Below, in pieces: positions 920-26,027 of a DNA stretch of 30,780 nucleotides. The notes below the pieces were generated by a model, which saw only the letters and a list, made by a program, of their open reading frames with translations, ran no database searches and was not told the DNA's origin. This stretch comes from a virus (Duplodnaviria > Caudoviricetes): the IMG/VR virus record IMGVR_UViG_3300011338_000680, positions 1 through 30,780 of that record; one strand, written 5' to 3'. Each line of letters opens with the position of its first letter. Position 1 is the first letter of the stretch. A program made the position numbers and the translations under genes.

Positions 920-921
920 AC

Positions 922-4108: not shown

Positions 4109-4121
4109 TATTCAACTTTAA

Positions 4122-4364: not shown

Positions 4365-4370
4365 TATGGG

Positions 4371-5488: not shown

Positions 5489-5661
5489 TACTCACCCTTG
5501 GAGATTGCAACCCGAAGGGTACCAACACCGGCTGCAGCTTCAAGAGCGTAAACCCATTCAGGGATTACGATACCATAAGCCTGAAGACCAGCAGTGACCA
5601 TAGCAAGTGCAATCACAATATAGGTCTTCTTACCATTTAGAAGTTCAAGAATCTTATTCAT
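5488..5661 (-). CDS. Holin-like membrane protein, 57 aa
   Basis: Not in the ORF track: MNKILELLNGKKTYIVIALAMVTAGLQAYGIVIPEWVYALEAAAGVGTLRVAISKGE. Two hydrophobic segments, located between endolysin and spanins. Confidence 0.7.
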   Translation of the reverse strand: MNKILELLNGKKTYIVIALAMVTAGLQAYGIVIPEWVYALEAAAGVGTLRVAISKGE

Positions 5662-5665
5662 AATT

Positions 5666-6148: not shown

Positions 6149-6157
6149 TAGTCCTCT

Positions 6158-6193
6158 AAAGAGGGGAGGGGCCTTTTATAGCCCCTCCTTTTT
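6158..6193 (-). terminator. Intrinsic terminator-like hairpin after the capsid/decoration genes
   Basis: GGAGGGGC (6165-6172) / GCCCCTCC (6181-6188) stem. Short U tract on the minus strand and T run on the plus strand. Lies directly after the TAA at 6195-6197. Confidence 0.6.
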
Positions 6194-6194
6194 G

Positions 6195-6689
6195 TTAGAC
6201 GCTACCCTTCGACCAGCGAACGCGGATCGAGAGCTTGCCAGCAGTGAAGGCGGCCGTACCGTACTTGGCAGAGATCAGCGCCGGGAAACCCGGAGTCGAG
6301 CCAATCTTTGCACCAGCACCCGTCTAGCCAAGCGTAAGCGTGGTACGATTACCAGCGTTACCAAACGTAGCAACAGCCAAAGCCGAAACAAGACCCGTGG
6401 CCGAAATAGCCGTGGTCGTGTCCGACTTATAGAGGCCCACAGAAAGGGTAGCCGAACCACCAGAGGTGGCAGAGACGAGCGTCTCAAGTTCTACTGCTTC
6501 AATGAAGGCGTCCTTCGGGAGGAACGTCGAGTAGTTAAGAATGGCGTCCGAAGAGGTAAGCGTAGTCAGGTCAAGAGTGATAACCGTCTCGCGCGTAGAG
6601 CCAAGCGTACGGAACTCACCAATCGTACCAGCAGTAGCCTCTTCAGGACCGAACTTGACGTACAGACCGTCAGAATTATACCAACCCAT
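6195..6689 (-). CDS. Capsid decoration / minor capsid protein, interrupted by an in-frame TAG at 6324-6326
   Basis: MGWYNSDGLYVKFG..., Thr/Ala/Gly-rich, directly after MCP with capsid-like codon bias. The frame continues past TAG for 42 codons (TGAGAKIG...AAFTAGKLSIRVRWSKGSV) to TAA just before the terminator. Confidence 0.75.
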
Positions 6690-6714
6690 TAGTTATTATC
6701 TCCTATAGTATTAA

Positions 6715-7661
6715 TTAGACCTGAGAGGCGTCAGACAGAACCGTAACCAGGTTCTCAGGACGGTACAGCTTGTAGCCGTAGCGGCACGTCGTGACGTACT
6801 CTTCGCGCTGGAGGTCCTTGTTATACTCGGAGTCAACCTTCGGGGCCTGGCGAACCGAACCGACGAACGGCAGAACATCAGGAGCAGCGGAGAAGAAGTA
6901 GTTAGCAACACCATTCGTCACCGAACGCGAGTTGACCGTCTCCGAGATCGAGCGAGGGAGGTTGACCGAGGTATAGACGTCAAAGCCATAGATGTTAGCA
7001 ATAAACTTCATACCCGTGCTCATACCATCACGCACGATACCTTCCCAACGCGGGTTGTTGGAGAGGTTCACGATGTTGGTCGTGGTAGCCAAAGCGTACT
7101 CAACCGAAGGATCAACAATCGCAACCAAATTGGTCATCGGGACGTTGGCCTTCTGGAGGGCATACTTGGCCTTAGCAAAGTCCTGGGGAACCATGACATT
7201 GTTGGTGCCAGCAGCCACCCAACGGTGGGCAGCCGAATTGATGTTGTTCAGATCAGAGGCAGTCTGACCAGCGTTGCCCAAGGCAAGCACATCAACTTCC
7301 ATCGCCTTAGCGATAGCACGATGCTGCTTCGGGCGAACGAACTAACAAGGCGGGACATATAGAATCTGTCCTGCTTCATCTTGTTCGTAATGTACGTAGC
7401 CGAGGACTTGTACTTGTTAATGGTGAACGTGAAGTTACCAGTATCCATCGCAGTGTAGCGAATTGCCTGACCTTCATCGTAGTCCAGCACTTCAGCCTGA
7501 CCGATAGACGGGATATTCAACGTATCGCCATCAGGGAAATCAGAGATCATGTCCACGTATTTCGTGGCAAAGAGCTCTTCGAGAAGAACCTCCTTGATCT
7601 GGGCAGACCAGAGGTTAGAACGAACGAGGTGTTCGTTGGTACCATAGCTAAAACCAGCCAT
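6715..7661 (-). CDS. Major capsid protein (about 315 aa), split by a 1-nt frameshift near 7333-7334
   Basis: ORFs 7248..7661 and 6715..7302 join as ...MSRLVSSF[x]PKQHRAIAKAMEVD... if one base is inserted (TTC G-C CCG). Motifs DFPDGDTLNIPSIG and C-terminal RYGYKLYRPENL. Follows scaffold, RBS AAGGA. Confidence 0.9.
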
Positions 7662-7686
7662 TTAAATTAGTATTCCTTTTGTTAAA

Positions 7687-8451
7687 TTAGGTGTCGAAAA
7701 AGGTTTCTCCCAAACGAAGTGCATCCTGGTGGAGCTGGTTCTGAACACTAGGCGACCAATAAGTACTAGGGTCTTTAGCTTTTAGGTCGTTGTAGTAAGA
7801 CATCTTACGATCACCAGTAGGGGTGAAACCCTTTACAGGAGCCATCTGGCGTCCCTGCGGAGGGGTAAAGAGGCCATTTGTGTTAGAGGCAGTAGGTTGC
7901 TTAGGAGTCTCATTCTCAATTAGCTTAAGGAACGCTTTGGGCTGCTCCTTTGCGAGATTGTTGAGAAACTCTTCACCAACGCCAAGCGTAGAGGCTGCTT
8001 CTTTGAGATGGGTTGCGAACTGAGGTCCATACTTCTCTTCAAGAGATGAACGGACGAAGTTCAAGTTAGCTTCCTGAGTACGGAGCTTGTCAGCCTGGGA
8101 GAGACGCTGTTCGACAAGTCGAGCAATGTCTTCTTCCGTAATCTGCTTTGCTCCACCTTCTCCATTACCGGATGGCTGGTGGCTACCGGATTCGGAATTG
8201 GGTGTCTCACTTCGGGGAGTAGAGATTTTGTCCATCATCTGCTCAATCGTGAGTCGAGTATTCAGTTCTTGTCGAATTCCACCTAGTTCACCTTTCAACT
8301 GTTCGATGAACCTATCGGATTCAACCTTTGCCCTGGCAAGGTCTTCCTGGGACTTAAACTTCTTTCCTTCACCAACAAGCTCTTCAAAGTAGTTCTTATT
8401 AGTGTCGGTAGGAGGGTTATTGGTATTCGTCTGGGTAAAAAGATCGGTCAA
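7687..8451 (-). CDS. Capsid scaffolding protein
   Basis: TTG start. Charged helical protein with LVGEGKKFKSQEDLA and C-terminal YWSPSVQNQ. Immediately upstream of MCP. Confidence 0.75.
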   Translation of the reverse strand: MTDLFTQTNTNNPPTDTNKNYFEELVGEGKKFKSQEDLARAKVESDRFIEQLKGELGGIRQELNTRLTIEQMMDKISTPRSETPNSESGSHQPSGNGEGGAKQITEEDIARLVEQRLSQADKLRTQEANLNFVRSSLEEKYGPQFATHLKEAASTLGVGEEFLNNLAKEQPKAFLKLIENETPKQPTASNTNGLFTPPQGRQMAPVKGFTPTGDRKMSYYNDLKAKDPSTYWSPSVQNQLHQDALRLGETFFDT

Positions 8452-8459
8452 TCTTTATC

Positions 8460-8723
8460 CTATTTAATAAACTCCAGGAGGCTCCGAATTTCCTTAAGTG
8501 CAGCTTTTTGCCCTAGTCTGAATGCTGCTTTATGAGACCAGGAAGGACTATCAAAGTCCGAAGGGGAGACCTCTTGGTTGTTAATGGTAATTTCTTTCTC
8601 TTCTATAAGGTCATACAGGCGAGAAAGGGCTACTACGCTATTACGGATAATAGCTTCCATCTCTACCTTTTTCTTAGGATCAGAGATGCTTTTGGTCCAA
8701 TGGACCGGAAGAGACTTACTCAC
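8460..8723 (-). CDS. Hypothetical head-module protein between portal and scaffold
   Basis: 87 aa, GTGA overlap with the portal stop, motif DFDSPSWSHKAA. Confidence 0.7.
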   Translation of the reverse strand: MSKSLPVHWTKSISDPKKKVEMEAIIRNSVVALSRLYDLIEEKEITINNQEVSPSDFDSPSWSHKAAFRLGQKAALKEIRSLLEFIK

Positions 8724-10552
8724 TTAGGTGGTAGAGGTTGTTGCTGTTGAATGTCTTGTGGCTTTTCTCCAAACATGTCTCGGTCATAGTCATCAGGAGA
8801 AATACCGGCAGGGGTTTGATTCTCCATAGCTACCTGTTGCTGGTGGGCCTGGAGAAGCCTCTGCGAGTCTGCTTGCTCAGAAATACGGACAAACGGTTGC
8901 ACAATTTCGTAGTCCTGGAGCTCAAGAAGGTCTTCAAATACCTTGGCCATTTTGATACCAGAGAAGTGAACCTTCACTTGGGGATCTTGGCCTACTGCTG
9001 AGTTGAAGAAGTTGTTGAGGTTCTGAACCCGTTCTGCCTTCTCAGCAAAATGTCTAGCTGCAATAGGACGAATACGGCCAGTACCAGTAATGTCATCTGG
9101 GGAGAGTGTCTGAAAGATCTCCGTCTTGTATTCATCATCAATAAAGCGAATGGATGCTTGCGACATATTGCGACGTGCAAGCTCTAGCATCGCATTGAGA
9201 AGGGGTTCTAGAATGAACTCTTCAAACTGAGCAATCTTGTTAGCAAAGATACGAGAAGCTGCGTTCTCTAGCCTCTGAACCTCGTAGGCCGTCTTTTCCC
9301 CAGGGGTACGGAATCCCATAGCCTCCTTAGGGGAACCAGCCATTTCCTCCATACGCTTCTCAAGCACCTCGCTTTCCCTGTTTGCCTGGAGGGCTTCAAC
9401 AGCTGGACTGAGAATGGAAACGTCTCCATCATCTCCCACAAAGATTCTTTCAAAGGGACCCCACTTGAAGTCTTCCACATACCCTTTGATTTTGAGGGGA
9501 GGGAAGGCAGTTAAATCAAAGACGTCAGCTTTGAGGTTCTCAACGTGGTCAATGCGGTACTGCATACCAACCAAGTTATCGAGAGGACCCATCGCCCAGA
9601 GGTTATCTTGGCGAGGTCTCCAACCACAATGGTAGATTGGAGGATGGCCAAAGAATGAGGGATTAGGGCCTTTATAGATGACCTTATGCCGGTCAGCGAC
9701 TACAACAACATAATTGCGAAGGAACTCGTCCTTTTCATCGTCATAGATGTCACCGTAGAAGGTGAGCAACTCACAATAGTCAGAAGTCAGGTATGCCCAG
9801 TAGGAGGTGAAACCATCCACACGATAGGCGTCGTTCTTGTTCTTGTCTGGCCCACCAGTGAAGTTAGCCGCATGGTTGCGGATGTTCTTCATGTACTGCC
9901 AGAGCTCTTCGTACTGGGGACGGGTATCGTCTGTAGAGAAACGCTCAAGCAGCTCTTTGACTTCACCCTTGGTGACAAGGGAACGAATGATCTTAGGAGT
10001 CTGGGTGTAGTCTGAACCAGTAGGGTTCATGACGGTATCCAGAGCTGAGATACGCCTTGGGACCGGTCCTACATAACCAACTTTGGTCTTGCCATCCTCT
10101 AGGAGCTGAGTTTCGTCTTTCCATTCTGCGGTGACAAAACAGTTGCCCATATCGATGTAGTCAAGAACTAGTTTTGCAATTTCCTTTTTGAACTGGTCCT
10201 GATCAATTACCCAGGACATATAATTAATGATGGCTTCCTTTTTATCAAGAGAAGCTTCATTACCTCCTTCCCACACAAGCCACTTGCGCTTGGGAAAAAG
10301 GGATGCCATATAGTTTGCGTAAAGGTTGTCTCGAATCTGACACAGCTTGGGAACAGTTGTAGTGTTCTTCCAAGGTAGAGTTGAATTAGTTGTCTTACGG
10401 GTATCAGTTGCATAGATGTACTGACTGAGTTCTTCCCACTGTCTCAACTTTTCTTGGCGATAAATATCCCATTGAATGTAATACTGGGAAATCTTAACAC
10501 CAAGGGTATCTTCGGAGATAACCTTAGTAAGGTCTAATACACGACCAACCAT
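8720..10552 (-). CDS. Portal protein
   Basis: 610 aa between TerL and scaffold. Motifs LPWKN.TT.PKLCQIRDNL.ANY, WAMGPLDNLVGMQYRIDH.ENLKAD and MGFRTPGEKTAYEV. Confidence 0.9.
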   Translation of the reverse strand: MVGRVLDLTKVISEDTLGVKISQYYIQWDIYRQEKLRQWEELSQYIYATDTRKTTNSTLPWKNTTTVPKLCQIRDNLYANYMASLFPKRKWLVWEGGNEASLDKKEAIINYMSWVIDQDQFKKEIAKLVLDYIDMGNCFVTAEWKDETQLLEDGKTKVGYVGPVPRRISALDTVMNPTGSDYTQTPKIIRSLVTKGEVKELLERFSTDDTRPQYEELWQYMKNIRNHAANFTGGPDKNKNDAYRVDGFTSYWAYLTSDYCELLTFYGDIYDDEKDEFLRNYVVVVADRHKVIYKGPNPSFFGHPPIYHCGWRPRQDNLWAMGPLDNLVGMQYRIDHVENLKADVFDLTAFPPLKIKGYVEDFKWGPFERIFVGDDGDVSILSPAVEALQANRESEVLEKRMEEMAGSPKEAMGFRTPGEKTAYEVQRLENAASRIFANKIAQFEEFILEPLLNAMLELARRNMSQASIRFIDDEYKTEIFQTLSPDDITGTGRIRPIAARHFAEKAERVQNLNNFFNSAVGQDPQVKVHFSGIKMAKVFEDLLELQDYEIVQPFVRISEQADSQRLLQAHQQQVAMENQTPAGISPDDYDRDMFGEKPQDIQQQQPLPPK

Positions 10553-10767
10553 TAGCGAATATTATCTTCCTGGTCAGAGCCAAAAGTTGTGGCTACAGCT
10601 TGTTCTGGGGACACGCCAATGGCTCTACCCCGAGGATTAATTGTAAAAGACCGCCCTTCACCCATTGCGCCGATCGGACTAGTTGCGGCTATTAGAGTGT
10701 TAGGATTAGGATCGTTCTTTGTGTAGTCCGAAAGATTGCCTGAGCTAGGATGAGTCTTCTTAGTCAT
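10552..10767 (-). CDS. Small hypothetical protein, paralogue of 10760..10975
   Basis: 71 aa, coupled to portal. Shares THPSS and FTI.P..RA.GVS.E.A...T with its neighbour. Confidence 0.7.
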   Translation of the reverse strand: MTKKTHPSSGNLSDYTKNDPNPNTLIAATSPIGAMGEGRSFTINPRGRAIGVSPEQAVATTFGSDQEDNIR

Positions 10768-10975
10768 CTCGCTCGTAAGTTTTCTTTATAGCCTCTTCAG
10801 CAGAGACACCAGTAGCTCTATGGTAGGGTTCAATGGTGAACGTTCCTACAGAATAACCGTCTTTATCTGGGGTTGTTGTACCCTGACGATCTCCAGGAGT
10901 CCTGGAAGAGGGATGCGTGGGAAGATCTGCATGATCATACTGACCACCACTAGAACCTTTAATACCTTTTGCCAT
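10760..10975 (-). CDS. Small hypothetical protein, paralogue of 10552..10767
   Basis: 71 aa, starts just after the TerL stop, same shared motifs. Confidence 0.7.
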   Translation of the reverse strand: MAKGIKGSSGGQYDHADLPTHPSSRTPGDRQGTTTPDKDGYSVGTFTIEPYHRATGVSAEEAIKKTYERDD

Positions 10976-10978
10976 GTG

Positions 10979-12535
10979 TTAGGCTACGCCTCCGAATCTC
11001 TGGTTTGTGTTGAATGGAAGAATGTTGGAGGCTCCTCTAAGGGCTACTCCAGAAGGGGCTACGCAAGAGTCAATACAAGAAGCCAAGCAGTCCTTGACGT
11101 CATCATGAGCAGGATTGGTTAGAACTAGTTCTTCTTCAAGGATCTGGCAGTTACCTCCTTGATAATGCCAGACCTGTCGATTGTTGTATCGAGGTTGAAG
11201 AATGGCTTCAATACGCTCTTCTTTAGAACCTTGGTGTCGATTTGGTTTGAAGTCCTCAACTGATAGAGCAAGACCATGAGGACGTATATAGTTCTGTTTA
11301 AGGTCATTAACGATCACTTGCTGTGCTGTAGTGACCTCAGCTCGGATTTTCCTGAAGTCCCACTTCTGGTGAAGTTTTAGGATCTTGGTAAAATAATCTG
11401 AAATCTTATCTGTTTTGAAACGTTCTATATCAAGAACATAGTAGTTGAAGTCTGCGTCAACTCCCACCACGACAATGGCTGTGTAGTCAGCTTTCCTACG
11501 TAACGAAAAAGCAAAGTCCACAGCTGCAAAGACATTTAACCGCTTGTGCTTAAAGAACCAACGTCCATCCACTCGATGAAGAAACTTTTGGTCGTAATAC
11601 TGAAAGAGATCACGGGAAATAGCAGCAGACTCGGAATCATTTGGATCATTGTAGTACTGTGCTCTAAACTGGACCCTATCTAGATACTGTGCTCGCTTTT
11701 TAGCTAGAATTTTAGCATCAAAACCAAACCACTTACCGTCATAACGCTGTTGTCGTGGCCAAAGGAACTGACCAGTTCCATCACCAATGTCCTCAACTTG
11801 CCGCTCAAGGACTTCATATAAGGGTTCAGAATCAACGATTTCTCCTTCATCATCATAGATATCGACGGCCATAGAAGACAGATCGTTATAGAGATCCTTC
11901 GGGTGGTACCTGGTGCCAACCACCCACTCTTCAGCATCAGAGCCTTCAATCGAAGAAAGTAGAGAGTACTGACTCTTTACCTTATCTCGTCCGTCTTCTG
12001 TATAAGCATTTTCGTAAACAACAACATCATCTAGTACGGCAATATCACAGTGCATACCTGTGATCGTGGTTGTAAGTCCAGCAGAGAAAACAGTTGGATC
12101 TCGGACTGCCTCAGCTTTACGGAGTGGGTGGTCTACAGCGAATTCGCTCTCAGTCCACTTCTCCCTCATTCCCTCCATTTGGTTGACCATGTTTGGCCAG
12201 TAGAAGGTGTAAATATCTGAGGTAAGGATATCTTTAATAAACTTAAGTTGTTTTTGAGCCAGGTTAGCAGTAGACGAGATATAAAGAACACGTATCGCTG
12301 GGTTACGAGTTATCTCCCAAGCAACACGATAAGCCACTAGAGCTGACTTCCCGTGATCACGAGGAAGGAGAAGGAGCTGGTGACTTTTAGCATTTCCTCT
12401 AGTCCACCAATTTATAACTTCAGAATGAACTGACCCAAGGACACGTTGGGGGTGAACAAGTCTGATAAAACTCTCTAGGTCAGTTTCGGCTTGCTCTCGG
12501 ATTTGGTCTTTCTTTGAGCGATTAGGATTTGCCAT
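10979..12535 (-). CDS. terL: Terminase large subunit
   Basis: Walker A LPRDHGKS, Walker B IAVLDD, coupling motif VVGTRY, nuclease acidic motifs AVDFAF and HDDVKDC. Confidence 0.95.
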   Translation of the reverse strand: MANPNRSKKDQIREQAETDLESFIRLVHPQRVLGSVHSEVINWWTRGNAKSHQLLLLPRDHGKSALVAYRVAWEITRNPAIRVLYISSTANLAQKQLKFIKDILTSDIYTFYWPNMVNQMEGMREKWTESEFAVDHPLRKAEAVRDPTVFSAGLTTTITGMHCDIAVLDDVVVYENAYTEDGRDKVKSQYSLLSSIEGSDAEEWVVGTRYHPKDLYNDLSSMAVDIYDDEGEIVDSEPLYEVLERQVEDIGDGTGQFLWPRQQRYDGKWFGFDAKILAKKRAQYLDRVQFRAQYYNDPNDSESAAISRDLFQYYDQKFLHRVDGRWFFKHKRLNVFAAVDFAFSLRRKADYTAIVVVGVDADFNYYVLDIERFKTDKISDYFTKILKLHQKWDFRKIRAEVTTAQQVIVNDLKQNYIRPHGLALSVEDFKPNRHQGSKEERIEAILQPRYNNRQVWHYQGGNCQILEEELVLTNPAHDDVKDCLASCIDSCVAPSGVALRGASNILPFNTNQRFGGVA

Positions 12536-12541
12536 AAGTCA

Positions 12542-12766
12542 CTAGTGGTGAAATAGGTTATAGAAAGCGTTGGTTACATCTTTAAAGAAGGCGGTGATTC
12601 CCGCAACAACACCAAAGAAAAGCCAGATGAACTTTCGCCCAGCCTTTTGCTCGGCAATAAATTCCAATATTGGTTTTTGGTTCTCTTTTAGTTCCTTTAG
12701 GTCTTCTTTGATTGAGGCGTTATCGGCTTTTAGAGAGGCGATAGTTTCAAGTGTTCTTTCGTCCAT
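12542..12766 (-). CDS. Small coiled-coil protein with a C-terminal TM helix (holin/antiholin-like)
   Basis: N-terminal coiled coil then FIWLFFGVVAGITAFF. Confidence 0.55.
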   Translation of the reverse strand: MDERTLETIASLKADNASIKEDLKELKENQKPILEFIAEQKAGRKFIWLFFGVVAGITAFFKDVTNAFYNLFHH

Positions 12767-12779
12767 TCTTCTATTCTTA

Positions 12780-13961
12780 CTACGACACGTTCAAGAACGG
12801 CTGCAAAAGAATCAAAGTAGGGCTGACAACATGGTATTTCCAAATATCAATAGCATTAGCCGTAGTTGTACCCGTCTTAGCGACACCATTCGCAGTCTTA
12901 AAGTAGCTACCCCAAGCAAGTGTTCTAGTACCAGTAGCATCCTGTTGAATACGGATCACACCCGTTTGACCAACCTTTATATTGGTAGGGTTAGCTATAG
13001 TGACGTTACCAGTAAGGGTGACACCAAAGTTAATACCAGTGTTAAAGTCAGGTGTAACAGTCGCAGAATACGTGAGGACGGTTTCAACCATAGCTCCCCA
13101 GTACTGGTCTACCTGTACAGCAGTATTAGCTAGGTTTGCCTGAAACTGAGCAGAAGACGCATAATTAAGAAATGGTGCCCACGAGCCACCTGAATGTTTA
13201 AACTGGATTACACCACCGCTGTCTCGTAAACCATACCCGGACGAACCATAGGTTCCACTCCAGTTAAGGTACTGACCAGCGGTAATACCTAAACCACTAG
13301 GGTTGACTCTAGACATCTCAGTGATATCAGAATAAAGGATCAGGTACCCACCAAGTCCATACAAACTGGTGTAATTTAGTGGATAGGCGTCAATAATTGA
13401 CTTAGCGTTTTTAACATCACTAGCTAGAAAATGGTTAGCTGCCGTCTTCGCGAAACGGAATGCATCTACACCAGCATCACGAAATGTAAAACCAGCTCTG
13501 TATCCAGTTCCACCATTTAAATAGAAGTCAGTAGTACCACCAGTATCAATTGTCTGAAGACCTGACCAGGTGTTGGCAGTCGATAAAAGGGTAGAGTACC
13601 TTCCAATAGGAAGAGCACCAGAAGAGATATTGCTAGCGTTAGTTGTATCGGTGGTGGCTGAAGGGGCTAGGCCACTGATCGCTGCTACAGGAATAGACCC
13701 AACACCAGGTGGGGTACCTGAAAAGGTGGAAAGAAGATTGTTTACATCTTGCATCCTTGCTGGCTCAAGCTGGCTAGCTGGGGAGGAAAGATTCAAAATA
13801 CGCTTGTTATTCATATCCAGATTGGCTGTCATCTGGTTAGGAGACACACCATCTCTGGAAACAAGAGTATCTAGAGCACTCTCAATCTGCGTAATGATAC
13901 CGTTAATAGCCGCAGGAGCATTTACAAGAGTGCTGAGACGGTTGAAAGTAAACTTAGTCAA
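12780..13961 (-). CDS. Tail fibre / receptor-binding protein
   Basis: N-terminal anchor-like SRDGVSPNQMTANLDMNNKRILNL..P. G/T/S-rich shaft. C-terminal VTLTGNVTIANPTN...IQQDATGTRTLAWGS domain is common in phage fibres. Confidence 0.8.
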   Translation of the reverse strand: MTKFTFNRLSTLVNAPAAINGIITQIESALDTLVSRDGVSPNQMTANLDMNNKRILNLSSPASQLEPARMQDVNNLLSTFSGTPPGVGSIPVAAISGLAPSATTDTTNASNISSGALPIGRYSTLLSTANTWSGLQTIDTGGTTDFYLNGGTGYRAGFTFRDAGVDAFRFAKTAANHFLASDVKNAKSIIDAYPLNYTSLYGLGGYLILYSDITEMSRVNPSGLGITAGQYLNWSGTYGSSGYGLRDSGGVIQFKHSGGSWAPFLNYASSAQFQANLANTAVQVDQYWGAMVETVLTYSATVTPDFNTGINFGVTLTGNVTIANPTNIKVGQTGVIRIQQDATGTRTLAWGSYFKTANGVAKTGTTTANAIDIWKYHVVSPTLILLQPFLNVS

Positions 13962-13966
13962 TTAGT

Positions 13967-14692
13967 TTATGAACCCTGTCTAAACTGAAACTCTGAAATC
14001 CACGGACTTGAGTTTGTGCTACCAGACACACCAGTTAGAGCATAGTACTTCCAACCAGTAAGATTACCACTTAGGCTAGTCATGACTACTGGAGTAGACG
14101 GATTGGAGAGCGCAAAACTCGATCCAATATCTGTCCAAGTAGACCCATCGTTGGATCCTTGCCACTTCCAAGTACCTAGAGCTGATCCAACACCAAGAAC
14201 GGTATGAAGCTTGGCCTCATCGATATAGGCTGTAGCTCCATTAAAATAGAAAATAAGCTGACGTCCAGCAGCAGCTAGAGCGTTATTAAAGTATACACCG
14301 GTATCGGAGATGTTTCCATTAACCAGTTGGGACAACGTGCCAGTCATAAGACCAGGTGTTGCTGAGACAGTTATCTGTGAAGTACGATCAGTTGTGATGT
14401 AGACGAAGTTAGTTGGAATGTAGGTGAACCCAGAAACTCGCAGAGCTCCGTTGTTCTCTACGTTTGAGGTTACACGAAGAGCCCCATTTTTGGCTACCCT
14501 ACCAACTACTGAACTACCAGTAGCGTCTTCAACGTAGATGGAACCGTCAGGGGCATTAACCCCACAGAAACCAGACCCAGGAGCCAAAGTGTAATACATT
14601 GACCCATCTGGGGCGTACCTACCAACAAAACCAACCCCAGGGGATTGTGTTAGTCGTACCTTTCCGTCTACGTCATAAATTCCAAAAGCCAC
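13967..14692 (-). CDS. Virion accessory protein with a C-terminal discoidin (F5/8 type C)-like domain
   Basis: N-terminal short repeats (GRYAPDGSMY / GVNAPDGSIY / AKNGALRV / ENNGALRV). C-terminal WKWQGSNDGSTWTDI...WKYYAL...ISEFQF pattern. Confidence 0.65.
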   Translation of the reverse strand: MAFGIYDVDGKVRLTQSPGVGFVGRYAPDGSMYYTLAPGSGFCGVNAPDGSIYVEDATGSSVVGRVAKNGALRVTSNVENNGALRVSGFTYIPTNFVYITTDRTSQITVSATPGLMTGTLSQLVNGNISDTGVYFNNALAAAGRQLIFYFNGATAYIDEAKLHTVLGVGSALGTWKWQGSNDGSTWTDIGSSFALSNPSTPVVMTSLSGNLTGWKYYALTGVSGSTNSSPWISEFQFRQGS

Positions 14693-15057
14693 TAGTGTAG
14701 ATTCTCTAGTTTGTAGATTGTCTTTAGGTAAACAGCTGAGAGTTCATCCAGGATGTTCTCTAGGGCTGAAACGTTTTTACAAATCTTGGATCGATTCTTG
14801 TTAATCCACTTGATGTCGTCTTTGAGACGTGAAAGGATGTTCTTTGCAGACTCTTCGTCTTTTTCATCCTCTGGGAGTTTCTTACCAATCAGACCAAAAG
14901 CTGCTTGGTAATCCTCAACCAGGTCGTCTAAAGGTTCAAGGACTGAATCATAAAAGTCATTGAGAGCCATGTGCTCCGCGTAGGAGGTGGTATTCCAATG
15001 GGAGTGGTGTGCTTCGTTTCTGGAACAGAAGACCATAGCCACAAGTTCGGTAATCAA
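14692..15057 (-). CDS. Ferritin/Dps-like four-helix protein (DUF5856-like)
   Basis: AHHSHWNTTSYAEHMALNDFYD...DDLVEDYQ and LENILDEL....KTIYKL match the phage Dps-like pattern. Confidence 0.75.
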   Translation of the reverse strand: MITELVAMVFCSRNEAHHSHWNTTSYAEHMALNDFYDSVLEPLDDLVEDYQAAFGLIGKKLPEDEKDEESAKNILSRLKDDIKWINKNRSKICKNVSALENILDELSAVYLKTIYKLENLH

Positions 15058-15058
15058 T

Positions 15059-15610
15059 TTACTGGAGCCCTTTTAGGTTAAGAATACGATCAAAGTCCCC
15101 AGAGATCCTCTCCTGGGCGCTAGCAAGCTCACTGGCGGCCTTTTTGATGTCTTCCTTGGTAGGTCTACCTCTGCCGTGCTTTTGGCCCTCCTTGGGCTCC
15201 CAGCCCTTCTCCAGGAGGTACCTGTTGGCCATGAAGGATTCTTTGGAGGTGGTCTTGGCTTCGGTTTTGATCCGCTGGAGGGCTTTAGACTTCATTCGGA
15301 GCTCCAGCTCCTTTCTCCATCGTTCGATGTAGGGTTTGAACCAGGAAGTGGCACAGAGCATCTCCCAGTGCTCCCACCCATCTACGTACTTTTGGGATAC
15401 CTCCCATTCCGTAGGATCATCAGTCTCCATATAGAGCCTGTAGAGAGACGGATACTCTCGATAGTCAATGTCTTTGAGCGTATATAAAACACTTGACTTG
15501 TCCGCCAAAGTCTGTTCGTAAAAGAGTCCCTTTAGGAGTCTAGCATTATTAATTTTGTTTCTAAATTTATTAGTAAATTTTGGGCTAGGCCCTAGAAGCA
15601 AAGAAGACAT
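15059..15610 (-). CDS. terS: Terminase small subunit
   Basis: First gene of the late arm. LFYE...LY..Y....DPTE...W.HW..L...WF...I..WR.EL and GRPTK resemble PaP3/cobavirus-type TerS. True start is uncertain. Confidence 0.7.
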   Translation of the reverse strand: MSSLLLGPSPKFTNKFRNKINNARLLKGLFYEQTLADKSSVLYTLKDIDYREYPSLYRLYMETDDPTEWEVSQKYVDGWEHWEMLCATSWFKPYIERWRKELELRMKSKALQRIKTEAKTTSKESFMANRYLLEKGWEPKEGQKHGRGRPTKEDIKKAASELASAQERISGDFDRILNLKGLQ

Positions 15611-15685
15611 GGATGAAATGAAATTACCTAAGGAGATTTCTTAAGATACTTTAAGTTCTAAGAAACCTAAAAACTACTAAATAAA

Positions 15686-15765
15686 AAGGGAGTAACTTAA
15701 GTTTTATCTTATGTTACTCCCTTAGGATACGCTCTTAGTAATTACCTAAGGGAATACCCTTAGGT
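15686..15765. repeat. Two inverted repeats in the late-arm leader
   Basis: AAGGGAGTAAC (15686-15696) / GTTACTCCCTT (15713-15723) and perfect ACCTAAGGG-AATA-CCCTTAGGT (15744-15765). Confidence 0.8.
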
Positions 15766-15774
15766 CTATACCTT

Positions 15775-15803
15775 ATGATATACCCCTTTGAAAGTATTGT
15801 CAA
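15775..15803 (-). promoter_or_regulatory. Sigma70-type promoter facing the structural arm
   Basis: Minus strand reads TTGACA-ATACTTTCAAAGGGGTA(17)-TATCAT, about 165 nt upstream of terS. Confidence 0.75.
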
Positions 15804-15917
15804 GTAGTTTCATAAGATAAAGGGTATTAGAGGAATTTCTGCTAGAAAATCTTGAGGTGAAGTTCACCTAGATACAACTAACTCAACCCCCTCTATACCC
15901 CCTAGAGAGGTTTCTCT

Positions 15918-15947
15918 TTGAAATCACATATAGAAATTTCTTATAGT
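15918..15947 (+). promoter_or_regulatory. Candidate sigma70 promoter facing the early arm
   Basis: TTGAAA-18 nt-TATAGT. Confidence 0.4.
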
Positions 15948-16544
15948 AGTATCTCTTTGGTAGGTAGGACTCTCTTCTCTTGGTGTATTACACCCAAAGA
16001 TACACCTTATTTCCCTATCTCATTGAAATTACTCATGTTACCTCTTATGCAATCTCCCAATAAAGACAACGAAGGATACGCCCTTACACTCTCTATAGTA
16101 AAATACATCCTTTGAAACATACCAAATATTGTATATCTAGAAGTATACCTTATAGGCGAATCCCTTCGCTTACGCTTCGGGAACGGGCTACTCATGAACA
16201 AAGCCTCTTTCAGAGTCTTTGCCCTTCGGGTGAGTATCCCTTTCGCATCCACCGGATAAATTGTTGATAACTACGTAGGCTGATCACCTCACACGCTCCA
16301 AGTGTAGTACGACATCACCGATCTTGCAGACTGCGGATGCATTGGGGTTAGTCATCTCATTACATATCATGGTGGTCTGCCTTTATTGTTGGAGGGTACC
16401 TACGCGTACTCACTCATCAAGTGGTGGGTCCTCGCCATGCTCGCTTCGCTGCGCGTGGCTCCGGTCCCGAGCTTCGCTCGCACTTGATTCGCTCCGTTCG
16501 CTCCGGTCCTTATCCTCCAACGGCAGACACCAACATAGATAAGT

Positions 16545-16756
16545 AAAGAGCTGCCGACTAAGCCCCAGCGATCAGCGGATTCTGCATTGGTGCAGCGGTA
16601 CGCAACCCGGATCGTGTGAGCTGACCAGCCTCTGGCGAAGTGATATTAGCTTCGCTAAGCTTGTTTTAAACTTATAAAATGCTAATGACCTTAGCCCACG
16701 TAAGACGATAGAGATCTAATCCTCTCGGCTGCTTGTCAGTTTGTCTTGGGCTCTTT
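16545..16756 (+). ncRNA. Candidate structured ncRNA (motif copy A)
   Basis: Closed by AAAGAGC/GCTCTTT. Internal stems CGATC/GATCG, CTGCA/TGCAG, GGT/ACC, TTAG/CTAA. Core shared with 18716-18820. Confidence 0.45.
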
Positions 16757-16837
16757 GTTCCTTTTCAAATGGAGAAATCAAATACGCAAAGTACTAAATA
16801 AAAGAAATGTGAGCTATAAAGATCATAGGAGCAAACA

Positions 16838-16969
16838 ATGAACCAAGCCTTGCATTGCTTCCACTACTACGCCCATCATCGAGATTACGCAGCTTATCGT
16901 GATCTCATTCGTCCTATCTTTATCTTCTTCTGGGACAAAGCGTCCTACTACTGGGGAATCAGCCAATGA
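16838..16969 (+). CDS. Small early protein, 43 aa
   Basis: Not in the ORF track. RBS TAGGAG, MNQALHCFHYYAHHRDYAAYRDLIRPIFIFFWDKASYYWGISQ, ATGA-coupled to the next ORF. Confidence 0.6.
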   Translation: MNQALHCFHYYAHHRDYAAYRDLIRPIFIFFWDKASYYWGISQ

Positions 16970-17121
16970 ACACACTCATCCAATACATGGACAGCGAGTT
17001 CCTCATGGGAATGCTCATCGCTGTCTTGGTAATAGGCTACAGCGTAGCTTGTTACCTCCACGGGAAGTCACATCGGCTTCCTATCACCACTCGCCGGAAA
17101 ACACCGCATATCAACATCTAA
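16966..17121 (+). CDS. Small early membrane protein, 51 aa
   Basis: Not in the ORF track. MNTLIQYMDSEFLMGMLIAVLVIGYSVACYLHGKSHRL..., one TM segment and a basic tail. Confidence 0.6.
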   Translation: MNTLIQYMDSEFLMGMLIAVLVIGYSVACYLHGKSHRLPITTRRKTPHINI

Positions 17122-17157
17122 CCCATAAAACTTAATATAACTAACAGGAGACAACTA

Positions 17158-17361
17158 ATGCACACTCAATCACAAGGCTTTAAGCGCATCAACCAATCCC
17201 CCCTTTACAAACTCAACGAACGCATTATCGTGCTTCAAAAATCACTTATGACTCTTTCCAACCTCTACGATCACTCAGAACGCCCTGAAGAGCAACTAGC
17301 TTTGGAGAATGCCATCACATCAATCAAATCAGAAATCTCCCGTCTCACAACGCGCTCGTGA
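17158..17361 (+). CDS. Small early coiled-coil protein
   Basis: RBS AGGAG, ATG, helical heptads. Confidence 0.7.
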   Translation: MHTQSQGFKRINQSPLYKLNERIIVLQKSLMTLSNLYDHSERPEEQLALENAITSIKSEISRLTTRS

Positions 17362-17534
17362 GAAAGCAAGGATCGCTGCCAGCTGCGCGCCTACGGCTGC
17401 TCGCTTCGCTGCCCGCCTCCGGCGGCCTTCGGTCCTTGCTTCTCCCGCCCGGTTGTGAGCCTGGGTTTGGGTAAAGAGAGAAGAATATCTCGATACAACA
17501 GCAACATCAACTGAACATAAAAGGAAATACGAAC

Positions 17535-18068
17535 ATGTCTACCAAGAACGTTCTCGCCAACTCGGCCTACTTCGCCTCTGCTCTTACTTCCATCGAGCCT
17601 CTCATCAACGCCCTGAACATGGACGTTGGAGAAGGCGATCAGGATACGGGTCACGAACGCCCAAGCCAGAAGGACATCGGCATCCGGATTATCCTCGGTG
17701 GTATCTGTCAGGTGATCCACAACCAACTTTATGGTGACTACACCACAAGCACTGGTTCCAAGGTTCCGAATGTCTACCGTCGCTTCATGGATTCGGAAGA
17801 ACAAGTCGGCTCCAAGGAATTCCAGGAACGAGCCGAAAATGGTGTACTCTCCAACGCCGACATGAAGGCGCTCGACTGGTACGCCAAGAACGAAGCTCGC
17901 TTCAACTGGCTCTCCGAAATGGACAACGTCTACAAGGAACTCTACCAGCAGGCAACCGGCGAAACCTGGAAGCCCTACGAACGCAAGGCGACCGAGTCCA
18001 AGCTCGACGACAAGCGTAAGGCACTTCTGGCTCGCATCAAGAGCGAGAAGGAAGTCGCTGCTGCCTAA
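17535..18068 (+). CDS. Early hypothetical protein, probably highly expressed
   Basis: RBS AAGGA. Strong C-ending/AAG codon bias like the capsid gene. 177 aa. Confidence 0.85.
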   Translation: MSTKNVLANSAYFASALTSIEPLINALNMDVGEGDQDTGHERPSQKDIGIRIILGGICQVIHNQLYGDYTTSTGSKVPNVYRRFMDSEEQVGSKEFQERAENGVLSNADMKALDWYAKNEARFNWLSEMDNVYKELYQQATGETWKPYERKATESKLDDKRKALLARIKSEKEVAAA

Positions 18069-18090
18069 TCCCTCCTACGAGAGGTGACTA

Positions 18091-18177
18091 GTGACCTGAG
18101 CAAGTCACGACACAAAAACTGCTCACCTAATTCAATTATGACCTGAGCAAGTCATGATTATCAATAAACTGCTCACC
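18091..18177 (+). repeat. Two tandem H-type pseudoknot repeats
   Basis: GTGAC-CTGAGCAA-GTCAC...AAACTGCTCACC and ATGAC-CTGAGCAA-GTCAT...AAACTGCTCACC. Loop TGAGCA is complementary to downstream TGCTCA. Confidence 0.8.
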
Positions 18178-18182
18178 CTTTT

Positions 18183-18256
18183 GGGAGCGTAGTCCAAGTA
18201 GAGACGGCTCGACAAGAGACGCAATGTGTTGGTATCAAATCCAACCGCTCCCACCA
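18183..18256 (+). tRNA. Atypical tRNA / tRNA-like RNA, anticodon not confidently assignable (possibly CAA)
   Basis: Acceptor stem GGGAGCG/CGCTCCC + A + CCA, D stem GTC/GAC, T stem GTTGG/CCAAC. T loop TATCAAAT (8 nt) and the anticodon arm are non-canonical. Confidence 0.7.
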
Positions 18257-18431
18257 AATTAGATAATACCGCTTGACGGCTTAGGCTAGCTACCCGTCAG
18301 GTAGTAAAAGACCAGGATACCGGAAGCGTCCTGGCGCTCTCATAAGGAGTCCAAACCACTTCCATCGTTTTTGACCAGGGAAGACTAGGGCAAACACCCT
18401 TCCTATCATAAACACCACATGAGACCTTCCT

Positions 18432-18704
18432 ATGCCATTCAAATCATGGATCTCAACACAAAACCCCAGAATCACAACCACAAATACTCCAATCGACCCT
18501 TGGGCACCAGGTAAAAAAATAAAATACAAAATTGCCGATTTAGGAATTGGAACAATAACAACTTTTGAAGATGCTAAAACAAAATGGGGACAAAGTATAG
18601 TAAATAACTACGGCGATGAAACAGTTTGGGCTTATTGGACCAATGCTAACGAAAGCCGTCCATTACAAACTCCCCGTAACCGTCTAATTCCCCTGCGCAC
18701 CTGA
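18432..18704 (+). CDS. Hypothetical protein
   Basis: 90-aa ATG ORF, A-rich codon usage like neighbouring genes. Its TGA stop lies in pseudoknot copy 3. Confidence 0.6.
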   Translation: MPFKSWISTQNPRITTTNTPIDPWAPGKKIKYKIADLGIGTITTFEDAKTKWGQSIVNNYGDETVWAYWTNANESRPLQTPRNRLIPLRT

Positions 18705-18838
18705 GCAAGTGCAAACAACTTAAGCTATAAACTAAGCCTAACTCCCGTTTGCGGCAAAGTACCACCCTCGGGTGAGAAACACCTATAGTACGGGTAAGAG
18801 CGACCATTGACGCTGAGTTGCAGAAAAAACTGCTCACC
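18697..18838 (+). ncRNA. Third pseudoknot copy with an inserted structured domain (motif copy B)
   Basis: GCAC-CTGAGCAA-GTGC (18697-18712) ... AAACTGCTCACC (18827-18838), enclosing a domain closed by CAACTTAAGC/GCTGAGTTG. Confidence 0.6.
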
Positions 18839-18874
18839 TAATTCATCATAAGTAGCATAAACGGATCTCACATC

Positions 18875-19615
18875 GTGAAGAAACTCGTCTCTAAAACCTC
18901 CTTTCCAATTTACGATACACAAATTCCTTGCAACATCCTCATGGGATGGGAATATGAAATCGACGATCCAAAAATACGCACTACCGATACATGGAATCGT
19001 CAAATAAATAGAATCAAAACTGCCTTTGGTCCTATAGGACACGAGCTCCAATTTCGTTGTGATGGTGGACATTACAATGAAAAAACAAGAATAATGACTC
19101 ACGGTATCGAAGTCTGCTCTCCAGTAGCACCACTCTTCCTATTGAAACATTGGGCTACACAACTCAAACCATTTACTGATAAAGCCAAACATCACAATGG
19201 CAACCACAACAACGGTGGCATCCACATCAATATCTCTAAAACAGCCTTCACAGCCAAACAATGGCCAAAAGTAAAAGAGTTTCTTCACAACACAAAGAAC
19301 TACCACCTTCTCTTTCAACTCTCTGATCGCCAGCAACAAAAATTCAACCTCAACGCCCCTCAAAATTTGATTACCTGTGAATTTAGCAAATACGGAATTA
19401 TTACAGCTACTAAGACCTACGCCTACGAACTCCGTATGTTCGGGGCTCACTCAAATACCTTCCTTCCAGCACTTGAATTTGCTGATGCTCTCTTCCGATT
19501 TGCAGCCACTGTCAAAATAATCACCCCAGACGGCTTCTTCACCTGGGTAGATCAACACAAAAAGTACCAAATCCTTTCAGCCTATATCCATCAGAAGTTG
19601 GCCGATACCAAATGA
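18875..19615 (+). CDS. Amidoligase (glutamine synthetase-like COOH-NH2 ligase)
   Basis: Ordered motifs GWEYEI, CDGG, GIEVCSP, GGIHINIS, YELRMF. Confidence 0.8.
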   Translation: MKKLVSKTSFPIYDTQIPCNILMGWEYEIDDPKIRTTDTWNRQINRIKTAFGPIGHELQFRCDGGHYNEKTRIMTHGIEVCSPVAPLFLLKHWATQLKPFTDKAKHHNGNHNNGGIHINISKTAFTAKQWPKVKEFLHNTKNYHLLFQLSDRQQQKFNLNAPQNLITCEFSKYGIITATKTYAYELRMFGAHSNTFLPALEFADALFRFAATVKIITPDGFFTWVDQHKKYQILSAYIHQKLADTK

Positions 19616-22345: not shown

Positions 22346-23589
22346 ATGTGTGTTATCATCGTCCGTAATCCAGGCATCGAGATCGATCCTGAAAAGATCA
22401 GCTCAGCTTGTGAAGTCAACCCACATGGCTTTGGCGTCTCCATCGTAGACCGAGGAAAGCTTGAGACAATCAAGTATTTCAACGAAAAGGGAAATGACGC
22501 CAAAGAACTATTGACAATTTTGGACCAGGAAAAAGATAATCTTGTCTTTGCCCATCTTCGCTTCTCTACCAAAGGTGCCAAGAACCAAGACAATTGTCAT
22601 CCATTTCGCATCTTCCAAGATGGTATCATGAGGCTTACCTCATGCACAACGGAACTATCTCAAGCTTCGGCAACGATACAATCTCCGATAGCCGTGAATT
22701 TGCAGAAGAAATTCTCGCACCTTTGACAGAAGCTTTCTTTGAAATTGATGATTTAAACGTTTTCGACAACAAGACATACCAAGCTATCGTCGAAAAGTAC
22801 CGTCCAGGCGGTTCAGTCTTTACACTCTACGATTCCCAAGGCAAATACCTGAACTTGGGTTCTGGTGTTCAGTATGACGGTTGGTGGGCGTCTAACACCT
22901 ATTCGTTCAACCGAACTCATCGAACTTCCAACAATAACAATTCAACTTACTACTACACCTCTTCTGAAACCAACGATACCAATCCGTGGGGCTCATCCCA
23001 CGATAAAACACTCAACAAACATTTTGAAAAAACCCCACAATGGCGTCTAGGTGACTATTACAATAGTTTCAAAGGTGAATGGGGCCGTTGGAATGCTTCT
23101 CATTGGAGCCCCAACATTCCTCTTTCTAAGCTAGACAAACGTACTACGCATTGGGTGAAGACGGAGGTGAAGACGAAGGAAACGGGAAAGCACCTCACCA
23201 TCGTCCAAAATACCGACGCAAAGACGTCTTCTACAAACGCAACCATCGCAAACGCTAACTCAAAGAATATAATGGCTCAACTAAAAGAAGACTGTGCCGC
23301 TATTGGTCAAGCTATCCACCACGCTAAGAAGTCTAACCTCGATCCTGCTGAACTCACCCCTCCTGAAAAGCGAATGACATTTGCTGAATTTGCAGAGCTC
23401 AACAGTCTTGAAGATGTCAACGTTCTTGATGAAGAACAGTTGTATGAACTTGCTGAACGATGGCCTCTCGCCACTACAATGCTCCTCATGGATTTGATCC
23501 ATGCTCTTTACACCAAGAAGATTCATGACAACATTCGAGCTGCCGGTGAACAGCAGCAAGATGAACAAAAAAAGGTTATCAATCAGTGA
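22346..23589 (+). CDS. Class II (Ntn) glutamine amidotransferase, split by a 1-nt frameshift near 22624-22625
   Basis: MC start (Cys2), NPHGFG, AHLRFSTKG and NCHPF in frame 1, then MHNG and SDSREF in the next frame. One inserted base (GGT -AT CAT GAG) gives a protein of about 414 aa. Confidence 0.85.
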
Positions 23590-24241: not shown

Positions 24242-24481
24242 ATGTCTAGATGTACAATTTGTGATTACCTCCAAGGTTATGGTTCTGAACTACACGACAT
24301 TCCAAACCGATGGAACAAACGTGTCAAATGGAGATTGAAGTTTAACGAATACCAATGTGATGATTGTTACAATGAGATCAAAGGACTGGAATGGGAAGAA
24401 CGAGAGTTCAACGAAACAATCAATCCTAAACAAGAAGATCATTCTCTACCGCCAACCTTGTCCCCACTGCCAATCGAGTGA
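24242..24481 (+). CDS. Small Zn-finger-like protein
   Basis: CTIC...CDDC. The 3' part overlaps the primase N-terminus. Confidence 0.6.
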   Translation: MSRCTICDYLQGYGSELHDIPNRWNKRVKWRLKFNEYQCDDCYNEIKGLEWEEREFNETINPKQEDHSLPPTLSPLPIE

Positions 24482-26027
24482 CGCCTACCATGTTTATGCT
24501 GATGGTCATGGTCATTGTTTTAGTTGTACTGTTACTGACAAACAAGCGCCATTAGAATATTTCGAGAATTTACCTGAGGTTAGGACACTTCCTATCATAA
24601 ATGAAATGACAACCATAGACCCAACTTCCTACTCCTACCAATACATCCCTCTCAGAGCAATCACAAAAGAAACTATGGTCGCCTACAATGTCCAAACTAA
24701 AGTGGACAACGAAGGCAAACCTCTAGAAATTGCATTCCCATATAGCTCAGATGCTCTCAAAATTCGAAAGATTGACGAAAAAATCTTCTACTCGAAAGGA
24801 GATATGAAAAGTGCAACCCTCTTTGGTAAAGACAAATTCTCCAAAGGCTCAGCCAGAAGTATCACAATCACAGAAGGTGAGTTCGACGCGCTTTCCGTAT
24901 ATCAAATGCTTGGGAGCGCATACCCAGCTGTCTCAGTCCGCTCTGCGTCTTCTGCAACAGCAGATTGCAAACACGAGTGGGAATACCTAAACTCCTTTGA
25001 AAAAATCTACCTCTGTTTTGACAATGACGAACCAGGTAAAAAGGCAAAAGCTAGTGTAGCTCGTCTCTTTGATTTCAATAAAATCTATGATGTAGACCTA
25101 AGCCAATACAAAGACGCCAACGCTTATCTTGAGGCAGGTGAAACGGATGTCTTCCGTCGCATCTGGTGGAACGCCAAACGTTTCCTTCCAGAAGGTATCC
25201 TGTCTTCTTTCTCTGAATTCAATAGTATTATTGATACGGAAAAGAAGAAAGATGCAGTCGCTTACCCTTTTCCGACTGTTCAGGAGATGACCTACGGCAT
25301 CCGCACTGGGGAGGTGGTGCTTATAACAGCTATGGAGGGTATCGGAAAAACCGAAATCATTCGAGCTATCGAGTACCACCTCCTCAAAATCACAGAAGAT
25401 AATATTGGAGTTATCCACCTTGAAGAAGACAAAGAGAGACTACTTAAAGGGCTGGCAGGATACGAGCTTAAGCAGCCCGCCCATCTCCCAGATGTTCCTG
25501 TCTCTCGTGAAGAAATCAAAGAAGCACTTCATAAAACTATTAGAATTGATAATCGACTACACATCTATAATCATTTTGGCTCTGATGATCCTGATGTTAT
25601 TCTTGATATCATTCGTTTTCTTGTTGCCAGTTGTAATTGTCGATATGTATTTTTCGACCACATCACTATGGCAGTGTCTGGTCTCGGCGATGAAGACGAA
25701 AGAAAAGCCTTAGACTATATTTCTACCCGTCTAGCCATGATGGTAAAGGAACTAGATTTCGCACTCATTCTTGTCAGTCATGTCAATGATGAAGGTAAGA
25801 CTCGCGGTTCAAGAAATATCTCTAAGATCGCGGATTGCTGGATTCATCTGGACCGAGACCAGCAAGCTTCAACAGAAGAGCAGCGGAACACTACTTATCT
25901 TACATTTAGAAAAAACAGATTCGGAGCGCGCACAGGTCCAGGAGGTAAATTACTTTTTGATATCTCAACCTTCATGATTGAGGAAGCTGATCCTCAGAAA
26001 ATGTCTCTCCCACCGGTAAATCCATGA
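24357..26027 (+). CDS. Primase-helicase (T7 gp4-like); start uncertain
   Basis: Zn ribbon PCPHCQSSDA...HCFSC, TOPRIM ITEGEFDAL / CFDND, SF4 helicase AMEGIGKT, FFDHI, VSHV, RGS, KNRFG. Confidence 0.95.
   Translation: MMIVTMRSKDWNGKNESSTKQSILNKKIILYRQPCPHCQSSDAYHVYADGHGHCFSCTVTDKQAPLEYFENLPEVRTLPIINEMTTIDPTSYSYQYIPLRAITKETMVAYNVQTKVDNEGKPLEIAFPYSSDALKIRKIDEKIFYSKGDMKSATLFGKDKFSKGSARSITITEGEFDALSVYQMLGSAYPAVSVRSASSATADCKHEWEYLNSFEKIYLCFDNDEPGKKAKASVARLFDFNKIYDVDLSQYKDANAYLEAGETDVFRRIWWNAKRFLPEGILSSFSEFNSIIDTEKKKDAVAYPFPTVQEMTYGIRTGEVVLITAMEGIGKTEIIRAIEYHLLKITEDNIGVIHLEEDKERLLKGLAGYELKQPAHLPDVPVSREEIKEALHKTIRIDNRLHIYNHFGSDDPDVILDIIRFLVASCNCRYVFFDHITMAVSGLGDEDERKALDYISTRLAMMVKELDFALILVSHVNDEGKTRGSRNISKIADCWIHLDRDQQASTEEQRNTTYLTFRKNRFGARTGPGGKLLFDISTFMIEEADPQKMSLPPVNP

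Follow-up and report, generated by a model that had tools for sequence, protein, structure and literature searches.

Comparative sequence analysis of IMGVR_UViG_3300011338_000680 (Duplodnaviria; Caudoviricetes), a 30.8-kb viral record of about 67% estimated completeness whose full 30,780 nucleotides (nt) are referred to here as the window, identified a structured RNA, uncatalogued in Rfam, in the loop of a pseudoknot that recurs between early genes of this phage. An initial annotation made from the letters alone had described two dispersed copies, A and B, of an undescribed phage non-coding RNA. This description holds for B, whose stems covary and for which Rfam has no match; that A and B form a single family is probable, not established. 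Within B, comparison of related sequences supports a real RNA structure in which the helices P3 and P4, the latter a YUCG hairpin, covary.

The evidence for B comes from relatives and from a strain variant. In relatives L001, L036 and L058 the orthologous pseudoknot holds a diverged insert, D, with about 43% identity to B (31/72), and the same gene lies downstream of B in the window and of D in L001 and L058. With a covariance model built from D alone, B was the top match in the window (16.7 bits, E 0.02). Between B and D, 6 of 12 pairs show two-sided change and 97% of cells pair, compared with 31–46% in slid controls, these counts being taken from three sequences in an alignment fitted to the structure. 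In a strain contig (run X13), two pairs of P3 (18745/18793 and 18746/18792) and one of P4 (18765/18772) have each changed from C-G to U-A; the same contig has UUCG as its P4 loop, lacks a base at 18739 and breaks one pair of the outer helix initially drawn around B. The U-G wobbles, together with the UUCG loops, suggest that B is a plus-strand RNA, and no DNA mini-hairpin words were found within 18070–18870.

Several observations weigh against the structure of B as drawn. B alone folds no better than shuffled sequences (z −0.4 to −0.9), the predicted probability of its P3 and P4 is only around 0.12, and RNAalifold on the B family favours the 5′ hairpin H1 over P2 and P3. The structure is under-determined because the family is known from just three to four lineages. 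Contigs from RNA libraries cover A (runs X15 and X20), and one from a presumed RNA library covers B (X16), but these contigs cannot show transcription.

The initial observation was confirmed in part. The word ACTAAGCC occurs exactly only twice within the window, at 16557 and 18731; GCGG and GAGC(T)GACCA are present in both copies in the places first assigned to them, and the Watson–Crick stems CGATC/GATCG in A and CCCGT/ACGGG in B, here P3, are as described. The chain of words alone is at chance level (random window strands have around 21 such pairs each, the two real strands 34 and 41). Together with a Watson–Crick stem of five base pairs in both copies, it was found in 0 of 40 random strands and once in the real window, at A and B; allowing G-U pairs and a flexible register, a five-pair stem was also found in 6 of 19 chance genome matches. 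The words held to be conserved are present in A and B, but CC, GCGG and GAGC become TT, GAGA and TGAC in the B orthologs. The outer helix proposed for A is probably wrong, as AAAGAGC lies at 16545 and GCTCTTT at 16750, 123 nt beyond the motif; the closing helix that lies nearest to A is AGAG-CTG/CAG-C-CTCT. For both copies, the inner GGT(G)/(C)ACC hairpin is also probably wrong: the B orthologs do not have it, and strain variants at 18772 (B) and 16607 (A), among the matches listed, break it. Compensating changes may lie beyond the matches listed, but any on that contig should rank equal.

Two features were absent from the initial annotation: B lies inside a repeated pseudoknot, and A has an inverted partner, copy C, at 16266–16400. 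The small H-type pseudoknot (stem-CUGAGCAA-stem ... UGCUC) is present three times in the window, and the third, which holds B, overlaps the stop codon of the open reading frame (ORF) at 18432–18704. Related loci yielded 42 distinct knot rows with covarying stems and unrelated loop inserts of 4–119 nt, a few of the long-insert rows being chance. Such unrelated cargo in the same loop suggests display. The knot stands directly 5′ of a transfer RNA (tRNA) in L014 and 5′ of a tRNA-like fold in the window, and its placement after stop codons and before a tRNA or tRNA-like fold would fit protecting or marking of processed RNA ends. Our literature searches found no description of the motif, of the knot or of an RNA nested in a separate repeated pseudoknot.

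A is probably, if not securely, homologous to B. Because MAFFT did not return the annotated A/B register, we used descriptors in place of a covariance model of A and B. A has in common with B and D a distance of exactly 14 nt from P4 to P3, and a B/D descriptor matched only A, B and D in 1.1 Mb of loci, with a background of 2 in 300 random windows. Hairpin H1, not part of the initial annotation, keeps its register across A, B and D and also in the L082 ortholog of A; a descriptor containing it matched only the A and B loci in 1.2 Mb of loci (background 4 in 1500 windows). Both descriptors (background 0.003–0.007 per window) were fitted after A had been seen, and the inner three H1 pairs were also found in 2 of 19 chance matches. 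Other results weigh against a single family: the B+D covariance model, built from three sequences, scores A at no more than 1.4 bits; the local alignment of A with B scores 26, with a null median of 36; MAFFT proposes another register; RNAalifold finds 0 pairs common to four A-type arms; the L082 ortholog of A is without P3; and with arm C present the local helices of A have probabilities near 0. We regard one family as probable, with the fitted descriptors in favour and the covariance model, alignment and A-arm consensus fold opposed.

Table 1. Features of copies A and B, the inverted repeat and the pseudoknots (window positions).
Feature	Position	Strand	Remarks
Copy A	16548–16627	+	Words, descriptors; also 3′ arm of long inverted repeat
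A H1	16548–16565	+	GAGCU / 8-nt loop / AGCCC
A P2	G16562-C16621, C16563-G16620	+	
A P3	16569–73/16610–14	+	CGAUC/GAUCG
A P4	16582–16595	+	CUGCA-UUGG-UGCAG; 14-nt linker after
A GACC	16623–16626	+	
A-arm upstream part	16512–16556	+	CGGCAG/CTGCCG helix 16521–26/16551–56, kept in L082
Copy C	16266–16400	−	Inverted diverged partner of 16512–16634; nhmmer E 1e-5
Mini-hairpin cluster	16443–16477	−	GCGAAGC/GCGCAGC; between arms, strand opposite early genes
Terminator-like hairpin	16633–16657	+	Directly 3′ of A; consensus match only
Pseudoknot 1	18091–18124	+	Short loop; just 3′ of ORF 17535–18068
Pseudoknot 2	18138–18174	+	tRNA-like fold within 10 nt after
Pseudoknot 3	18697–18835	+	GCAC/GUGC stem; loop GAGCA pairs UGCUC 18831–35; long loop holds copy B
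Copy B	18722–18806	+	Words, covariation in ortholog and strain variant
B H1	18722–18739	+	AAGCU / AUAAACUA / AGCCU
B P2	G18736-C18801, C18737-G18800	+	
B P3	18744–48/18790–94	+	CCCGU/ACGGG
B P4	18763–18774	+	CACC-CUCG-GGUG; 14-nt linker after
B GACC	18802–18805	+	
Gene directly 3′ of B	18875–19615	+	Weak similarity to amidoligase-like ORFs of relatives

The reading we tentatively prefer is that B is a loop-borne, protein-binding RNA, decoy or regulatory, within an end-protecting pseudoknot, and that A is a probable second member. The A and B stretches would be transcribed and processed; the knot between early genes would protect the processed RNA end and so keep B stable; the conserved CUAA and GAC strands would form a binding surface; and B would be displayed from the knot loop as a protein-binding decoy or regulatory module. 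A would be a second family member and, in addition, an arm of the long hairpin located close to what is likely the left genome end. We favour a protein-binding module over a ribozyme or switch because cleavage within the loop would break the knot apart. Catalysis or ligand binding, as first suggested, found no direct support, and part of the structure initially proposed is wrong.

It is a distinct possibility that only B is an RNA motif and that A is an arm of a minus-strand single-stranded DNA hairpin near the likely left end, its likeness to B being coincidental. Such a hairpin would act in priming, in terminal-repeat duplication or as an ejection signal, and is compatible with any reading of B. 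A and C pair as a hairpin of around 370 nt (folding z −8.5 for 16150–16780), the long inverted repeat that holds A lies near the likely left genome end, and L082 has the same inverted-repeat architecture, with arms tracking each other. Several relatives have long inverted repeats of unrelated sequence at the same place, and arm mismatches on the early-sense strand, pooled over 15 alignments, are A-C in 46 cases versus G-T in 19 (4 versus 2 in the window). Across 12 left ends, comprising the window and the closest phages with enough sequence, GNA mini-hairpin words number 61 on the strand opposite the early genes and 13 on the early-gene strand, or 42 and 11 after removal of the word readable as RNA UUCG, a bias that suggests a single-stranded DNA role at left ends. 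The available text of PMC13037366 places DNA mini-hairpins at phage replication and N4 promoter sites, with GCGNAGC at G4, ssiA and N4 vRNAP sites; the same words cluster around A with a strong strand bias, a likeness that bears on the setting of A and not on B. No RNA polymerase match was found among 33 window ORFs scanned. The negative covariance-model, local-alignment and consensus-fold results also speak for a DNA arm. Set against it, A shares H1, CUAAG, P2, P3, P4, the linker of 14 nt and GACC with B and D at low background, and C and A differ at two pairs (P2 G-C to C-G; P3 A-U to C-G) in ways that keep the local fold but are mismatched in the long hairpin.

It is unlikely that the motif is a self-cleaving ribozyme of a new class, one that would cleave the polycistronic early transcript and have an internal loop of CUAA and GAC beside P2. 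The arrangement is suggestive, in that a short helix has conserved unpaired nucleotides on either side and variable stems at its periphery, and the copies lie scattered among the early genes of the phage. The proposed CUAA/GAC loop resembles the UAA/GA loop found where twister cleaves. However, A and B have no defining word or topology of the hammerhead, twister, twister sister, pistol, hatchet, hairpin or hepatitis delta virus (HDV) ribozymes, and the enclosing knot would be severed by the cut. According to the available text of PMC6765202, bacterial ribozymes are reported near phage genes, and other motifs found in the same way did not cleave. We are similarly sceptical of the bolder reading in which A, B and D represent a novel class of RNA, self-cleaving or strand-exchanging, that is built on a CUAA/GAC core and plugged, as other cargo RNAs are, into a universal pseudoknot scaffold, and whose second copy is silenced by an inverted antisense copy at the genome end.

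Still less probable is a two-state cis-acting switch in which the central strand (AGCCC, AGCCU, AGUUC or GGUUC) pairs first with the 5′ strand, as H1, and later with a look-alike 3′ strand, as P2; this would control termination downstream of A or, downstream of B, read-through into the gene run. In D, the U of the central strand has changed jointly with its partners on both sides (A in both), constrained folds of the two states differ by 0.4–1.2 kcal/mol in A and B, a terminator-like hairpin follows A, and the gene downstream of B and of the inserts in L001 and L058 is shared. For D and the L082 ortholog of A, however, the states are around 5 kcal/mol apart, no expression platform overlaps B, and terminator-like sites occur at chance frequency (3 found versus 3.4 expected). 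That everything is chance resemblance without selected structure is very improbable: the word chain does arise often by chance, and the z-scores of folding in isolation are unexceptional, but the independent compensatory changes in P3 and P4 largely refute this for B.

A cmscan of the window against Rfam 15 gave 0 matches at the gathering score; at E ≤ 10, the interval 15600–19000 gave chance-level matches only, and the D inserts of the relatives gave none. Feature tests agree with the initial annotation that A and B match none of hammerhead, twister, pistol, hatchet and HDV. The hammerhead consensus is a CUGANGA–stem II–GAAA core; CUGANGA is absent in A and B, and D has CUGAUGA with no GAAA following. 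HDV-like ribozymes, theta forms included, have a nested double pseudoknot of P1, P1.1, P2, P3 and P4 with L3 and J4/2. An L3-like word was found only in D, not in A or B, and P1 and P3 partners are absent by inspection. The loop B strands of the hairpin ribozyme are AGAAACA and GUAUAUUA, of which AGAAACA was found in B alone, not in D or A.

In twister, L1 has a conserved UAA on its 5′ side and GA on its 3′ side. Twister is a double pseudoknot, its L4 loop forming T1 and T2 with L1 and L2 (available text of PMC6154101). The RNA described here shares the conserved UAA 5′ and GA 3′ of a short helix, P2, and the phage-type setting, but A, B and D lack an L4 loop of T-NNN-AAGC type, there is no second pseudoknot and no Rfam twister match, and in L058 (UUCG-AA) the bases that follow GA do not keep a T1-like pairing to the P4 loop. 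Twister sister, as set out in the available text of PMC5660989, has a comparable order of P1, conserved internal loop, P2 and variable inner stems; its L1 (G5 C6 A7 A8 G9 / G59 C60 U61 C62 A63 U64) and SL4 loop (G29 U30 G31 C32 A33 A34 G35) are absent here. Where twister sister has L1, the window motif has the strands RCUAAG and C(U)GACC; the SL4 word was not found, and none of the GCTCA matches is on the 3′ side of L1 in the plus strand. Hatchet, as far as the available text of PMC4604424 describes it, has a P1 hairpin of 3 or 6 base pairs, a conserved linker from P1 to P2 and a P2/P3 bulge. A resembles it in having a 6-base-pair hairpin before a conserved linker, followed by stacked stems with a variable hairpin at their end, but B and D lack the hatchet P1 hairpin, the conserved residues are found outside P2 and not at the P2/P3 bulge, and Rfam gives no match. 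Pistol, in the available description, has a pseudoknot of 6 base pairs joining the loop of P1 to the P2/P3 junction; A, B and D do not all keep any pairing of this type, a strain variant disrupts the candidate CUAU/AUAG, and Rfam again gives no match.

Three further candidates were rejected: a P7-like pairing of group I introns (CUAU/AUAG), because the G-binding pair is absent in B and a strain variant breaks the helix; a tRNA-like 3′ end (GACCA), because D ends in GACCC and there is no acceptor partner; and a Loop-E (AGUA/GAA) beside P4, which is in B only. A literature search for the UAA/GAN loop motif returned nothing. Another comparison is with non-cleaving motifs near ribozyme-associated phage genes, which we take to be those named RAGATH. 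These motifs, in the available text of PMC6765202, are like the window RNA in being covarying intergenic phage RNA of unknown function, but no Rfam model matches it, and our searches met no account of nesting inside a separate repeated pseudoknot. The motif was not found in four of the six listed supplements of PMC10690425, the remaining files of which may hold it.

Searches of IMG/VR, 44 whole viral records, cultured phages and prokaryote genomes, insensitive to remote members, suggest that the family is confined to a small phage group. The exact pattern of the initial annotation gave one and nine loci in IMG/VR, none of them members; the nine all represent a single stretch that runs antisense to a gene, and the lone locus looked like coding sequence. 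In prokaryote genomes it gave 19 matches, below the roughly 60 estimated by chance. A B/D-derived pattern gave three IMG/VR loci, namely two known D copies and a chance match antisense to a giant-virus capsid gene. With default filters, the B+D model returned no new member from 91 loci (826 kb), and only D from sets of 8 and 7 further loci. A core pattern, whose 8-nt loop cannot match the L082 ortholog of A, matched 2 of the 44 records, both D. The search with blastn against cultured phages gave nothing relevant, and a loose descriptor on 80 related loci gave noise.

B offers an uncatalogued, covariation-supported phage RNA with defined stems and natural variants suited to assays, its narrow distribution limiting its present significance. 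Should B cleave, it would represent a new class of ribozyme; should it bind a host protein, it would be a candidate RNA decoy among tRNA-like neighbours. The spread of inserts suggests that a tiny pseudoknot common to many phages may act as a scaffold displaying interchangeable RNA cargo of 4–119 nt.

The tRNA-like fold just after pseudoknot 2 (18183–18256, plus strand; z −3.2), also seen at 1742–1826 of L058, has a 7-base-pair acceptor stem, an ACCA end, a T-arm and a shrunken anticodon arm, and is possibly a tRNA decoy; ARAGORN, which found 0 genes, overlooked it. More stable hairpins lie at 18262–18400, between this fold and ORF 18432, and the stretch 18070–18430 looks like a non-coding RNA cluster. 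Further long inserts in the same knot loop are found in L049 (2502–2639; 119 nt) and on the minus strand of L083 (4520–4628; 91 nt), that of L049 carrying the word TCCCAAGC and a TAAG...GACC layout; neither matches Rfam or the B/D model.

The window derives from a Zobellviridae-like podophage. Structural genes occupy minus-strand positions 1–15610, and early and replication genes the plus strand from around 16900, with PHROG matches for head, portal, terminase, primase-helicase and DNA polymerase among the window ORFs, the primase lying at 24357–26027; gene 15059–15610 matches cultured phages of the Zobellviridae, such as Citrobacter phage CVT22 and Lentibacter ICBM, at 30–39% identity. Sequencing runs containing window DNA have a riverine metagenome label or coded names, and runs with a small share of words (X15–X20) were excluded as habitat evidence. 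The gene at 18875–19615, without a family match of its own, opens a run with weak ATP-grasp, amidoligase and glutamine amidotransferase matches and a clear gamma-glutamyl cyclotransferase.

Towards the left end, a block at 15830–15910 (GAATTTCTGCTAGAAAAT...GAGGTG..TTCA followed by C-runs) is kept in the close relatives viewed; it is likely a terminal repeat or packaging site, and its conserved part at around 15830–15900 probably marks the genome end. A plus-strand hairpin at 16187–16240 (GGG-CUACUCA-UGAACARAG...CUYUG-CCCUUCGGG-UGAGUA-UCCC) has covarying stems and no Rfam match, and its pattern was found in the window and in 3 of 45 relatives (left ends of L082, L083 and L085). A second minus-strand cluster of GNA mini-hairpins lies at 17365–17450, in an inverted repeat before the gene for a 177-amino-acid early protein (17535–18068, plus strand), with similar clusters in L001, L058, L082 and L083; the protein has 81 relatives at E ≤ 0.001 among protein representatives and no Pfam or PHROG family. 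The plus-strand word CTTCCTATCA(T), a candidate phage promoter or protein site, is repeated at 17078, 18400, 18427 and 24589, and in many relatives, ahead of early genes. Two genes appear as overlapping ORFs: the major head protein (6715–7661, minus strand; 137 and 195 amino acids, both phrog_267), split by a frameshift or sequencing error, and a glutamine amidotransferase-like gene (22346–23589, plus strand), where a 126-amino-acid ORF overlapping one of 331 amino acids possibly reflects a frameshift.

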